From contig JBHLOY010000008.1 in the NCBI GenBank assembly GCA_048939995.1, positions 32,001 to 96,000 of the forward strand: a DNA stretch of 64,000 bases, given 5' to 3'. How positions within the stretch are numbered: the stretch's first letter is position 1; every line of letters starts with the position of its first letter. The translations under genes were made by a program, and so were the position numbers. This stretch comes from Promethearchaeota archaeon. GTDB taxonomy: Archaea > Asgardarchaeota > Lokiarchaeia > Sigyniarchaeales > SOKP01. Below, piece by piece: positions 7,814 through 12,449 of this stretch. The notes beneath the pieces were generated by a model. The model did no database searches. It saw nothing but the letters and a program-made list of their open reading frames with translations, and had not been told where the DNA came from.

Positions 7814-8722
7814 ATGAATATTATGCTGAAAGGAATCCATTTCCTGTTAACTTATGCATGTAATTATGAATGTGATCACTGTTTTCTATATTGTGGACCA
7901 AATTCTAAGGGCACTTTTACAATGGATCAAATTGGGCAGATACTCAATGAGGCGGATAAAATTGGAACCATAGATTGGATTTATTTTGAAGGAGGGGAAC
8001 CATTTCTTTATTATCCCCTCATGATTGAAGGTATTAAAAAAGCTAAAGAGAAGGGTTATAAGGTTGGAATAGTTACAAATTCATATTGGGCTACTTGTGA
8101 GAAAGATGCAGAGATATGGTTAAAACCTATTTCAGAATTTGCCATAAAAGATTTTACTGTAAGCGATGATAGCTTTCATTATAATGTTGAGGCTGAAAAT
8201 CTCTCTAAAATCGCGAGGAAATCAGCAATTGCTTTAGGGCTTCCAGTAGGTTCGATAAGTATTGATGAGCCTACATTTGAGTATGGAATTGAGAAAGAAC
8301 ATGAAAAGGGAACTCCAGTAATCAAAGGAGGCGCTATGTTTCGAGGAAGAGCTATTGAAAAACTAACTAAGGATTTACCACAGAGACCTTGGGAAGATTT
8401 AAATAAATGCCCATATGAAGATTTAGAAGGTCTTGGTAGAATCCATGTTGATTCTTTTGGAAATGCCCAAATTTGCCAAGGTTTAAGCATAGGAAACTTT
8501 TGGAAAACTAATCTTTCTAAGATAATTAAGAAGTATGATCCATATTCCCATCCAATAATTAGCCAATTGCACCAAGGTGGTCCTGCCGCATTAGTAAAAA
8601 AATTTGATATTGAACATGAAAATACTTATGTCGATGAATGTCATTTTTGTTTTTTGGCTAGAAAAGCATTATTAGATATCTATCCGGAATATTTAGGGCC
8701 AAAACAAGTGTATGGCTTTTAA
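7814..8722 (+). CDS. Radical SAM protein
   Basis: CNYECDHC (CxxxCxxC), GGEP, C-terminal Cys cluster. Confidence 0.9.
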   Translation: MNIMLKGIHFLLTYACNYECDHCFLYCGPNSKGTFTMDQIGQILNEADKIGTIDWIYFEGGEPFLYYPLMIEGIKKAKEKGYKVGIVTNSYWATCEKDAEIWLKPISEFAIKDFTVSDDSFHYNVEAENLSKIARKSAIALGLPVGSISIDEPTFEYGIEKEHEKGTPVIKGGAMFRGRAIEKLTKDLPQRPWEDLNKCPYEDLEGLGRIHVDSFGNAQICQGLSIGNFWKTNLSKIIKKYDPYSHPIISQLHQGGPAALVKKFDIEHENTYVDECHFCFLARKALLDIYPEYLGPKQVYGF

Positions 8723-8734
8723 TCTTTCACCTTT

Positions 8735-11626
8735 TCAATCGACATCTATATATATTGCTGGTTTATAAGGAATAGACTTACTTGATTTATTTTGAGGGTC
8801 AAATTTAGAGTTTATAATAATTTTTGAATTTACCTTGTTTTCAATGTAGCCTTTATATTCTCTTAGCAGTTGTTTCTCATCTGACTTAGGGATAGAGTTA
8901 TCCCAGCTTCGTCTATTTATTTGATTTTTGATAAACGGGATCAGTTCTTTATTTTTCATCAAGTTCGGTTGCTCCTTTAATTCGGATATAATAGCCTTAA
9001 AATCGCCCTTCTTATTAAGTATTAAGCGATTTACATTGTGCTTCCAACCAACAGCAGTGTAGATGTAAATAATTTTTATATTTCGAGTCTTAACTACCTT
9101 TTTTATATTTAAAATATCATCAATAAGGTTTGAAATATAATTAAATTCAATTTCAAGTTCTTTATCAAGATATCTATTGTCTAATCGACCCCAAACTGAT
9201 TTTGAAATAAATCCCTGATTTCCTGAAATTTCCCATAACTCTTCAGACAGATGAGGCATAGTTAATGATATTATTTTAAGCCACTCCCTATAAATTATAC
9301 TGAATACAATCTCAAAGTCATTATAATCCTCGACATACTTTTGTAAATCTTGTATTAAATTAAACGTCTCATAGAAAGATAACTGAAGATATTTCCGTAA
9401 ATTGAAGTCCTTCAATGCATCGTCAGCATCTAAAAAGTTCTGAGCAATTTTTGATACAATTACACGTGCATATTTTGATTGAATATCATTGTAATGATAA
9501 TCGAAATTCTTTACATTTTCAATATGTAGATGCATGAATTCATAAAATCTAGCTATATGGTTTCTAACCGCTTGAATTTCCTTCTCTCTCCAATCCATAT
9601 TAATTCCTAAATCAGCAGTATGTGAAATATAAAATCTAAATAAATCTGCAGAGTATTTAGTCTGTATATCCCCAAGAGAGATTATATTCCCTTTTGATTT
9701 TCCCATCTTTTGACCTTCAATTAGTACAGGCTCTATTAATGTTATAATTTTTGGCCAGTAGTAATTAGGAAATATAGCAACATGATGAAATATGTAAAAA
9801 CTTAAATGATTTGAAATATGCATAATTGCTGTGTGTCTATGATCAACTGGATACCAATACTGAAATTCATCTTGCATCTTGTTTAATAAGTTTTCATCAA
9901 TTCCTGTCTTTTTAGATACTTCTTTTACAGTTCCTTCGTTTAAATAAATAAAATCGAAGAATTCAGGGATTAATTGCTTTGGCTTAATTTCATAATTTTT
10001 GAGGTGGTGGACAATCGTATAGAAACTCATATATATTGTTGAGTCGCTTAAAGATTCAACAATCCATTCTTGGTCAAATGGTAGGTGTGTTCCTAATCCT
10101 CGTTTCCGAGCACATGGTCTCTTTTCTAACCAATGAAAGACATTTTCAAAATTCATCCTATATTTTTTTGGAATGATGCTCATATCAGATAAACATTCAA
10201 AGGCATCTTTTTTCCATTCTCCAGCATCAAAATTGAGGAACCATTGATCCTTAAGAATAGTAACTATTATTTTTTCTCCGCATCTACATCTCAGATTTTT
10301 TGTAACTGGGATATAGATCTTATCCGCTTGATTGCTATTTAAGAGTTCTTCAACAACAAGAGTCACTGCTTCACTAACTGGCTTATCAACATATTCGCTA
10401 CATTTCTCATTTAATACACCGCTATAAAACTCGCTTTTATAGTTTTCGGCAGTTGCTTTATCCAATTTTTTCTTATCAGCCTGTGATTTAACCTCAAATT
10501 TTTCGCAATAAATTTTAGCGGGATAATCTTCAAAATCCTTTAGATTTATTATTTGAATAGGTTTTATATTTTCAATCTCTTTCTTATTCATCTTGAATTT
10601 ATCTAATGACTCAGTGCTTCTTTGTAAATCAATTAAAGCAATGTAATCAAAGGGCGCATGGGCGGGTACAGAATAAACGACCCCTGTAGCTGAGGAAGTA
10701 TCAACGAAATAACCAGGTAAAATGGGTAAATCTTGAGCATTGATAATATTTTTAGCTTTCTTTCCTATCAGTTTTTCTCCTTTAAAGGTTTCAAGGGCTT
10801 TAACTGTTTTATTTTGATTTTCCAATTTCTTTATCGCTTCCTTTGAGATGAACCAGATTTCTCCATCTACTTTTGCTTTTACATAATCTCCATCAGGATT
10901 GATCCATAAATTGGTTACTCCAAATATAGTTTCTGGTCTTAATGTAGCTGGCACTAGAAATCCTTCCTCAAAAGGAAATTTTATACAGATGTATTCGTTA
11001 ATATCAAGATTTAATTCATCACCTCTCGCAATATCATCTTCACCAACAGCATTCATACACCTTGGACAATAGAGTATTGGATATTCACCTTTTTCCAGAT
11101 ACTTCTTTTCTGCTAATTTGTAATACTGCCATTCAATTAGTTTATTATATATTTTATCACCGGTAGTGAATTCCCTCCTCCAATCTATGCTCATTCCAAT
11201 CGACTTAAAGTCCAATTTCATGGTATTTGAAAAATAATTTACAATATTCCAAGGATCAATAAAACTTTCTACTATTTCTTCTACTTTTTTTGGATTTTCT
11301 GTGTGCAATGAAACATAATCCTTCATTCTAGCTATAATTTTTTTATCTTTCCTCTTTATTGATGAAGAAATTGCTAAAACAGGTGTTCCTGTTATATGAA
11401 ATGCCATTGGATATAAAACGTTGTATCCTTTGGCTCGATAATAACGGGCAAAAATATCACCATTAACAAAACTTCTACCATGACCGATGTGAAGAGTTCC
11501 TGATGCATAAGGATAAGGTGATGTAATAAATTTTTTGCCAATTGATTTATCTGGATTTGCTTCAAATATCTTAGCACTTTCCCATCTTTCTTGCCACTTT
11601 TTCTCAATTTCTAGAGCTTTATACAT
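8735..11626 (-). CDS. leuS: Leucine--tRNA ligase (archaeal/eukaryotic type)
   Basis: PYPYASGTLHIGH, ATLRPET, GVVYSVPAHAPFD (CP1 editing domain), ESLSDSTIYM, KMGKSKGN. Confidence 0.96.
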   Translation of the reverse strand: MYKALEIEKKWQERWESAKIFEANPDKSIGKKFITSPYPYASGTLHIGHGRSFVNGDIFARYYRAKGYNVLYPMAFHITGTPVLAISSSIKRKDKKIIARMKDYVSLHTENPKKVEEIVESFIDPWNIVNYFSNTMKLDFKSIGMSIDWRREFTTGDKIYNKLIEWQYYKLAEKKYLEKGEYPILYCPRCMNAVGEDDIARGDELNLDINEYICIKFPFEEGFLVPATLRPETIFGVTNLWINPDGDYVKAKVDGEIWFISKEAIKKLENQNKTVKALETFKGEKLIGKKAKNIINAQDLPILPGYFVDTSSATGVVYSVPAHAPFDYIALIDLQRSTESLDKFKMNKKEIENIKPIQIINLKDFEDYPAKIYCEKFEVKSQADKKKLDKATAENYKSEFYSGVLNEKCSEYVDKPVSEAVTLVVEELLNSNQADKIYIPVTKNLRCRCGEKIIVTILKDQWFLNFDAGEWKKDAFECLSDMSIIPKKYRMNFENVFHWLEKRPCARKRGLGTHLPFDQEWIVESLSDSTIYMSFYTIVHHLKNYEIKPKQLIPEFFDFIYLNEGTVKEVSKKTGIDENLLNKMQDEFQYWYPVDHRHTAIMHISNHLSFYIFHHVAIFPNYYWPKIITLIEPVLIEGQKMGKSKGNIISLGDIQTKYSADLFRFYISHTADLGINMDWREKEIQAVRNHIARFYEFMHLHIENVKNFDYHYNDIQSKYARVIVSKIAQNFLDADDALKDFNLRKYLQLSFYETFNLIQDLQKYVEDYNDFEIVFSIIYREWLKIISLTMPHLSEELWEISGNQGFISKSVWGRLDNRYLDKELEIEFNYISNLIDDILNIKKVVKTRNIKIIYIYTAVGWKHNVNRLILNKKGDFKAIISELKEQPNLMKNKELIPFIKNQINRRSWDNSIPKSDEKQLLREYKGYIENKVNSKIIINSKFDPQNKSSKSIPYKPAIYIDVD

Positions 11627-11720
11627 AAGTTCATATCAACTTCTTTATACATTAATTATCAGAAAAAACCCACCTATGATCCCTTTCGAATAAATTTCAC
11701 TCCATGCGAAATAATCCACC

Positions 11721-11759
11721 AAAAATTTAAAAGAAAAAGATTAGGCAGACTTATTCCGC
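11721..11759 (-). terminator. Hairpin plus oligo-U tracts right after the leader stop codon (candidate attenuator/terminator)
   Basis: Minus strand: TAA GCGGA-ATAAG-TCTGC CTAA TCTTTTTCTTTTAAATTTTT. Confidence 0.5.
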
Positions 11760-11849
11760 TTAAAGTAATAATAATAACACTGCAAGCAAATCATCTAACC
11801 AGGATCTTGACTTTATGAATGAATGTGAAGCAGTATTATTTGAAATCAT
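11760..11849 (-). CDS. Putative leuS leader peptide, 29 aa
   Basis: MISNNTASHSFIKSRSWLDDLLAVLLLLL*; 8 of the last 12 codons are Leu; TATA box about 24 nt upstream of ATG. Confidence 0.75.
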   Translation of the reverse strand: MISNNTASHSFIKSRSWLDDLLAVLLLLL

Positions 11850-11870
11850 TATATAATAATCACTTTTTTT

Positions 11871-11890
11871 AATATAAAAATTTTTTCTAT
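11871..11890 (-). promoter_or_regulatory. BRE/TATA promoter for a leaderless leader-leuS transcript
   Basis: Minus strand ATAGAAAAAA-TTTTTATATT, about 24 nt before ATG 11849. Confidence 0.55.
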
Positions 11891-11942
11891 CAAATCATTA
11901 AATATTTATCCAAAGAGCTATTGATAAGTTTAAAAATCAATC

Positions 11943-12449
11943 GTGATACAAACTATGGATAAAAAAGTGTTAATTGCATATTATTCTCTTACAGGTAACA
12001 CACAATTCATTGCAGAAGCAATCCAAGAAGCTCTTCAAGTTGATATCGAAGAATTAAAACCAGTTAAAGAACTTAATCCTAATAGTTCGATGAGATTTAT
12101 GTGGGGTGGAATGCAAGCAACAATGAAAATGAAACCAGATTTATATCCAACTGGGAAAAATCCTCTTGATTATGATATAATTTTCTTAGGTACCCCAGTT
12201 TGGGCTTGGACTTTTTCACCTCCTTTAAGAAAATATATATCATTGTTTGATCTTTCTACTAAAAAGGTAGCAATTTGGGTTTGTTGTGCAGGAGATGGTA
12301 AGAAAGCGTTAGATCGATTTAAAGAGGCTTTGAAGGAAACTCAAATCCTTGGAACGAATATATTTCAGCAACCATTAAATAATAACTCTAAAGAGGAGAA
12401 AGAAAGAGCAATCTCTTGGGCGAGTGAGATTGTTAATAAGCTCTCTTAA
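11943..12449 (+). CDS. Flavodoxin-family protein
   Basis: YYSLTGNT FMN loop, GTPVWAW. Confidence 0.88.
   Translation: MIQTMDKKVLIAYYSLTGNTQFIAEAIQEALQVDIEELKPVKELNPNSSMRFMWGGMQATMKMKPDLYPTGKNPLDYDIIFLGTPVWAWTFSPPLRKYISLFDLSTKKVAIWVCCAGDGKKALDRFKEALKETQILGTNIFQQPLNNNSKEEKERAISWASEIVNKLS

Follow-up and report, generated by a model that had tools for sequence, protein, structure and literature searches.

The window, meaning the whole 64,000-nucleotide stretch of Lokiarchaeia DNA analysed in this study, carries on its minus strand a gene for an archaeal-type leucyl-tRNA synthetase (LeuRS), leuS, the product of which contains both the HIGH and the KMGKS motifs. Upstream of it lies a short Leu-rich open reading frame (uORF), preceded by promoter-like sequence and followed by a series of RNA strands able to pair in more than one way. 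The features are given below in the order in which they would be transcribed:

11887-11881, minus strand: BRE-like purine run (from sequence)
11878-11871, minus strand: TATA-like box, starting 29 nt before the uORF ATG (from sequence)
11849-11760, minus strand: leader uORF of 29 codons, conserved across the leuS loci of the family
11841-11830 with 11783-11773, minus strand: P1, a hairpin inside the uORF and candidate pause or protector helix
11763-11798, minus strand: control codons, with eight Leu among the last 12, the final five consecutive and abutting the stop
11744-11761, minus strand: strand A, which begins in the stop codon and pairs with C (early fold) or E (late fold)
11721-11744, minus strand: strand B, a conserved U-rich tract, either in the A:C loop or paired with D; candidate aCPSF1/FttA signal
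11706-11720, minus strand: strand C, partner of A (covariation)
11670-11697, minus strand: strand D, complement of U-tract B (covariation)
11660-11669, minus strand: strand E, second partner of A, closing the long A-B:D-E hairpin (duplex test)
8735-11626, minus strand: leuS, archaeal-type leucyl-tRNA synthetase of 963 aa, above NCBIfam cut-offs

A flavodoxin gene, with its start at 11943-11955, diverges from the leuS leader and shares 4 nt (12446-12449) with a convergent CooC-like ATPase ORF at the 3' end of the latter, and at the other end of leuS a radical-SAM gene is convergent with it across a 12-nt gap (8722-8735).

The initial annotation of this DNA had described a BRE/TATA sequence before the uORF, an ORF of 29 codons with this Leu-rich ending, and a distance of 133 nt between the uORF stop and leuS, the ATG of which lies at 11626, and all three were confirmed. 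In 103 of 112 leader copies a TATA-like sequence lies 22-38 nt upstream of the uORF start, compared with 8/113 in a downstream control window. Judging by the TATA spacing only, the transcript is predicted to start at the uORF ATG or a few bases before it, and the uORF is thus probably leaderless or nearly so.

A Leu-rich uORF was present before archaeal-type leuS at 57/57 loci of the family (Lokiarchaeia, SOKP01 relatives), which supports the earlier claim of a probably leaderless, Leu-rich uORF tied to leuS. These loci comprise 24 from the same genus with intact upstream DNA (24/24), 16 further and 20 more, less three repeats, and as the genomes are related the counts of loci and copies are not independent. 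Among the same-genus contigs is SOKP01000182, the named relatives belong to the Promethearchaeia (Lokiarchaeia), and the uORF-bearing loci include divergent leuS paralogues that are only 41-42% identical. Of the 1368 intergenic ATG-ORFs of at least 13 aa that lie upstream of genes in the genome of the window, just 2 have eight Leu in their last 12 codons, and this rarity, together with conservation in relatives, places the Leu-rich uORF beyond chance. Across 113 copies the uORF is 20-32 codons long and ends in any of the three stop codons, the other two reading frames are open in 0 and 10 copies, and its ATG, frame and stop position are kept across 10 genera. Residues 8-17 of the peptide, on the other hand, show only 12% identity to the window copy among leuS leaders, so conservation does not lie in the peptide product. 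The uORF was absent before about 30 distant leuS orthologues, four of them from another family and 26 more distant archaeal loci, the latter having at most five Leu in 12 codons. Three archaeal-type leuS loci of another family (L027, L028 and L029) are without the element but have, roughly 213-234 nt upstream of leuS, a mini-ORF of 9-11 codons whose positions 5-6 read F-L; it is not clearly present in a fourth (L030). Five records titled Thorarchaeota, Hermodarchaeota, Hodarchaeota or Nanopelagicaceae (L047, L048, L055, L063 and L081) carry the family leuS (68-75% identical) together with the leader, and their titles are probably submitters' mislabels, since three of them coincide with contigs of family genomes.

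The genome of the window encodes a second LeuRS, of bacterial type (C23:45102-47889, plus strand; TIGR00396, 928 bits), and no Leu-rich uORF precedes that gene. The bacterial type occurs in 121/135 family genomes and is near-universal, whereas the archaeal type is patchy, being found in 72/135 genomes and 4/13 genera and absent from several genomes rated 99-100% complete, so that the leuS of the window is an auxiliary synthetase. In genus g27, the leader stands before the only LeuRS found. In one search, the closest matches outside the family were DPANN archaea (59-62%), a hint of transfer. No LeuA/HMGL-like gene was found in the genome of the window (98% complete), so that the organism is probably a leucine auxotroph; a LeuA-type domain is present in 65/135 family genomes.

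A covariance model built from 39 leuS leaders matched 105/135 family genomes, covering 10/13 genera, and 0/24 genomes from other families of the class. A full uORF accompanied 57 of the 60 matches away from known leuS loci, a figure that is not independent because the model includes the uORF. The leader was found to precede five gene classes, with a codon run that tracks the downstream gene (means per last 12 codons):

archaeal-type leuS, 57 leaders, with one further copy among the model matches: 7.0 Leu, 1.5 Val, 0.1 Ile, 0.1 Phe
bacterial-type leuS, 4 copies, in one genus without the archaeal type: 7.5 Leu
4Fe-4S-FrhB-HTH fusion, 17 copies: 4.8 Ile, 2.7 Leu, 2.0 Val
small acidic ORFs of 45-68 aa, 33 copies: 4.6 Val, 4.5 Leu
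acyl-CoA dehydrogenase-etfB-etfA, 2 copies: 6.5 Val

For comparison, hydrophobic windows of the proteome average 3.0 Ile, 2.5 Leu and 1.4 Phe. Ile is at 0% in the last five positions before archaeal leuS and at 88-100% in three positions before the FrhB-HTH fusion, and the leuS leaders use all six Leu codons. The strongest evidence that the device reads codon identity is this natural codon swap on one RNA scaffold: the run is purely Leu in front of either of two unrelated kinds of LeuRS, and mixed branched-chain in front of metabolic genes.

A second, diverged copy of the leader was identified in the genome of the window (C11:337957-338158, minus strand; 25 codons ending V-V-V-L; model score only E 0.7), preceding a 61-aa ORF that has a strong Shine-Dalgarno (SD) site and no Pfam or Atlas match. 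In the small-ORF class (L148-L204), the leader is followed by a small acidic ORF, or by two, oriented towards a conserved aminotransferase gene, and two types were distinguished, one of about 45 aa ending I-A-W and one of 60-68 aa with a P-G-E-I-E-I-E-D-E motif. In two loci (L205:3379-4827 and L206:3212-4660), the 4Fe-4S-FrhB-HTH fusion, possibly a regulator linked to redox state, is flanked by genes for methylmalonyl-CoA mutase subunits on one side and meaB on the other; it is beside methylmalonyl-CoA mutase genes in 2/6 loci viewed and in other contexts elsewhere. No cognate-codon leader was seen before the other class I synthetase genes of the genome (Ile, Val, Met, Cys and bacterial-type Leu), and genome-wide uORF scans, by which class II synthetases were covered collectively, revealed no comparable cognate leader. 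Directly before cysS (contig C17; L040:680-790), a stretch resembling tRNA-Cys(GCA) with a T-arm insertion was recognised by eye, which was not detected by ARAGORN or Rfam.

Analysis of the leader RNA revealed three helices with covariation. P1, inside the uORF, has 87% of cells paired and 27 cells with two-sided changes, and 0/500 shuffles were as good. For A:C, two-sided changes were seen in 8/14 pairs (0/500 shuffles), and the B:D covariation score was above 500/500 shuffles with 39 sequences and not above shuffles in a smaller set of 24; two-sided changes occur inside the U-tract in L052 and L063, and substitutions in B that preserve B:D occur in these and in L124. In a register-free duplex test, shuffles were beaten in 111/113 copies for A:C, 84/113 for B:D and 76/113 for A:E, compared with controls of 3/106 for C with the ribosome-binding site, or RBS, and 29/113 for A:D, the windows of which overlap E; kinship inflates all of these shuffle tests, and slid-register controls and partner-swap tests agree with them. 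Cognate partners paired better than swapped ones in 52/57 leuS leaders for A:C and 50/57 for B:D. As A:C and B:D overlap and cross, they are mutually exclusive, and at the window locus the long A-B:D-E hairpin is exactly as stable as the A:C fold, at -32.5 kcal/mol each. Despite the variation in uORF length, A:C starts no more than 3 nt from the end of the stop codon in 111/113 copies. Strand B has at least nine U in its best 12-mer in 86/113 copies, whereas the equivalent window downstream of gene ends in this genome reaches that content in 253/1356 cases, and one to three U4 tracts lie in the B loop in 54/57 leuS copies, with none in 3/57.

Where the initial annotation had seen no clear antiterminator, two mutually exclusive covarying helices are therefore present. 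The GCGGA/TCTGC hairpin and U-tracts that it had pointed out do exist, but the 5-bp hairpin is not a conserved structure or terminator, having a median of -2.0 kcal/mol and reaching -3 kcal/mol or better in only 49/113 copies; the same letters make up the 5' strand of a covarying helix of longer range. B:D with E was also rejected as a bacterial intrinsic terminator, since at least five U in the 8 nt past the B:D base were found in only 13/57 leuS copies, and without a conserved U-run after B:D the leader is not of the bacterial terminator style. A pairing between strand A and the D-L-L-A codons was dropped, having been noticed by eye in no more than a few loci. Natural variants, useful as ready-made mutants, include loss of the stop in L002, in which the ORF runs three codons further into strand A, an 11-nt deletion in D (L015), loss of E (L018), a broken uORF (L167) and a truncated copy without a downstream gene (L185). 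An Rfam scan of the leader region gave nothing at gathering score.

The ribosome very probably gauges charged tRNA-Leu through the leader uORF, as far as can be judged from comparative sequence, and the proposal that stalling on Leu codons controls leuS is thus retained in its sensing part and not in its hairpin/U-tract terminator, which is not conserved. Given sensing, the geometry of the leader and the feedback logic for genus g27 make it probable that leuS is switched on under Leu shortage, as this would be the only stable feedback where the leader precedes the sole LeuRS found. The footprint of an archaeal ribosome extends about 11 nt from its A site (PMC7261190), and this offset was used when folding stalled complexes. 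For transcripts ending after C, the mean probability of A:C was 0.92 with the ribosome stalled at codons -8 to -3, 0.76 at -1 and 0.33 with the ribosome at the stop and 12 nt covered; with 9 nt covered instead, the contrast shrinks to 0.92 versus 0.76. As the control codons abut the stop, stall and stop are only one to three codons apart. Once D is transcribed, B:D dominates at equilibrium whatever the ribosome position, so that A:C would be an early, kinetic fold.

Under Leu shortage, a ribosome stalled on the Leu codons would leave strand A free, and A:C could form, closing U-tract B into a loop and blocking the single-stranded path required by aCPSF1/FttA; RNA polymerase would then read on, and the RNA would refold to A-B:D-E, burying the U-tract. 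With Leu plentiful, the ribosome at the stop would mask A, and B, exposed behind the polymerase, would permit aCPSF1 cleavage and termination with a 3' end near 11730-11715. The enzyme aCPSF1 is encoded in the genome, and B is the only conserved termination-like signal in the leader. It has been reported that aCPSF1 binds U4 tracts, recognises RNA in single-stranded form and cuts nascent transcripts, and that a Lokiarchaeota orthologue is functional in Methanococcus maripaludis (PMC13675443). B is, however, exposed in both states until C is made, a loop of 25 nt need not hide it from the KH domains, the tract tolerates changes as long as B:D is preserved and is without a U4 in the loop of 3/57 leuS copies, and the catabolic-looking targets (acyl-CoA dehydrogenase-etfBA, and FrhB-HTH near methylmalonyl-CoA mutase) might want the opposite sign. 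Given the sign, termination or cleavage at B is judged slightly better than an even prospect as the main output. Sensing and sign taken jointly, a ribosome-mediated attenuator is a fairly likely account of the leader, with this effector the likeliest of several.

Two alternatives deny the codon run a sensing role. In one, the run is a chance TTA microsatellite in AT-rich DNA and leuS is transcribed from its own promoter in D, and it is true that 283 of the 397 Leu control codons are TTA, a triplet that accounts for 49% of Leu codons genome-wide. The remaining 114 are other Leu codons, however, and Ile and Phe, which are one-step neighbours of TTA as well as the commonest residues in real hydrophobic segments, are nearly missing at about 0.1 per 12 codons; this excludes a microsatellite and also makes a membrane peptide unlikely. 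An internal promoter in D was likewise rejected, with a TATA-like word in 28/113 copies compared with 103/112 before the uORF. With the start, frame and stop conserved across genera and the helices covarying, the absence of conservation that the initial annotation had named as its refuting case does not apply, and the chance of this explanation is negligible. In the other, which is improbable, the uORF encodes a type I toxin or a small hydrophobic membrane peptide whose own expression is governed by the RNA structure. All 113/113 peptides do end hydrophobic and an N-terminal M-I-S-N-N-T-A consensus is kept, but the consensus is explained by P1 pairing, in which a non-synonymous change at codon 5 is matched at the third position of a Val codon (pair 15-72). 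The variable middle of the peptide, a hydrophobic run of only about 12 residues, often with Asp-Asp inside, the near absence of Phe, Met and Trp (and of Ile before leuS) and a composition that tracks the downstream gene all point away from such a product, and the peptides lack both the conservation and the usual hydrophobic composition expected of a membrane-spanning helix.

The remaining two accept the same RNA and differ in its logic or output. The B:D helix could be an antiterminator that hides the U-tract, with A:C as an anti-antiterminator holding B open for aCPSF1, such that ribosome dwell on A turns the gene on, either through a long stall at the last Leu codons or, with the sign reversed, through amino-acid plenty. 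D is indeed a conserved complement of the U-tract, there is no spacer between control codons and stop, some targets look catabolic, and at the window locus a ribosome at -3 or later shifts the fold from A:C (0.82) to B:D (0.87). This logic needs A:C to reach back into the final Leu codons, an extension that is present in the window locus but conserved in 4/57 only; stalls at -12 to -3 leave A free, which would turn the gene off in starvation, and switching on in plenty would give the one LeuRS found in g27 a positive feedback loop; this reversal is considered unlikely. Slightly less probable again is that strand E occludes the RBS, an output of the same sign as the attenuator that could act alongside it and that has a precedent in mycobacterial leaderless poly-Cys sORFs (10.1101/834739). 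Opening the start region is costlier with the ribosome at the stop than stalled, by 0.8 kcal/mol for leuS (28 rises, 12 falls), by 2.6 for FrhB-HTH and by 3.2 for the small ORFs, and 13/29 copies of the small-ORF class show E paired with the SD. Against this, the E:RBS duplex was above shuffles in 0/53 leuS and 0/17 FrhB-HTH copies, the leuS pairing showed no cognate preference (27/53), the spacer from uORF to ATG ranges from 112 to about 200 nt, and L018 lacks E altogether; E as an anti-Shine-Dalgarno strand for leuS, an idea formed by eye, was ruled out by the shuffles and partner swaps.

Leader-peptide attenuation is a textbook form of bacterial control. A literature search, with most subscription journals outside its coverage, found no paper reporting it in an archaeon, and the word "attenuation" is absent from a review of transcription-translation coupling in archaea published in 2021 (PMC8116511). 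If the attenuator acts as proposed, leader-peptide attenuation would here be carried out by a CPSF73-type nuclease, the archaeal counterpart of the enzyme that cleaves 3' ends in eukaryotes, and the coupling of transcription and translation in Asgard archaea would gain direct functional support. It would also mean that a spare archaeal-type LeuRS is kept under leucine control beside a bacterial-type one, and would point to the FrhB-HTH fusion and the small acidic proteins as part of Asgard branched-chain amino-acid physiology. A family-wide branched-chain 'ribulon', in which a portable leader is tuned to Leu, Ile or Val and the ribosome gates access of aCPSF1/FttA to the U-tract, is put forward tentatively, its chances falling somewhat short of even. 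With a 200-nt element that shows codon swaps and compensatory changes in over 100 genomes, the question of archaeal attenuation becomes testable.

The leader may be set beside several known systems. The leuA-Halobacteria motif (RF03001), for which a Leu-rich ORF and attenuation have been proposed, is likewise an archaeal leader motif named for leucine metabolism. Its 53-position model gave no match in the genome of the window, while a Haloferax control matched, and the motif precedes leuA, a gene not found in this genome. Auxiliary synthetases induced by tRNA undercharging are known from B. subtilis thrZ (T-boxes) and Streptomyces trpRS1 (leader peptide). These share with the leuS of the window a patchy second synthetase under charged-tRNA control, putatively so here, beside a housekeeping one; in the present genome, however, the housekeeping LeuRS is of bacterial type and the spare of archaeal type, and no T-box leader was matched up to E 5 in 11400-12100 (Rfam).

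With the classical attenuators of E. coli (leuL, ilvL, thrL and pheM-pheST), the Lokiarchaeia leader has in common a leader ORF of cognate codons before a synthetase gene, a helix inside the ORF, and exclusive folds of which one strand is masked by a ribosome at the stop; the cognate leader ORF is present, and the exclusive folds were found computationally, with a contrast that depends on whether 9 or 12 nt are covered. It differs in its archaeal promoter, its probably leaderless start, the absence of Rho and of bacterial RNA polymerase, its interleaved A:C versus B:D topology and the lack of a conserved hairpin-plus-U-tract terminator. Its control codons also abut the stop, whereas in E. coli leuL, pheL and hisL they do not run straight into it. 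In Streptomyces, attenuators have been predicted for leuS and trpS (PMC1262725).

A likeness in layout may be drawn with the mycobacterial poly-Cys 'Cys ribulon', which shares a leaderless sORF, a terminal run of one residue and reuse before several genes (10.1101/834739). The amino acids and the RNA fold are different, and the output there is release of a sequestered RBS, for which support was found partly in the small-ORF class and not in the leuS leader. In factor-dependent leader-peptide attenuators such as E. coli tnaC and Salmonella mgtL, the position of the ribosome gates the single-stranded loading site of a termination factor. There the factor is Rho acting on rut, whereas in the Lokiarchaeia leader the corresponding part would be played by the aCPSF1/FttA nuclease acting on the U-tract.
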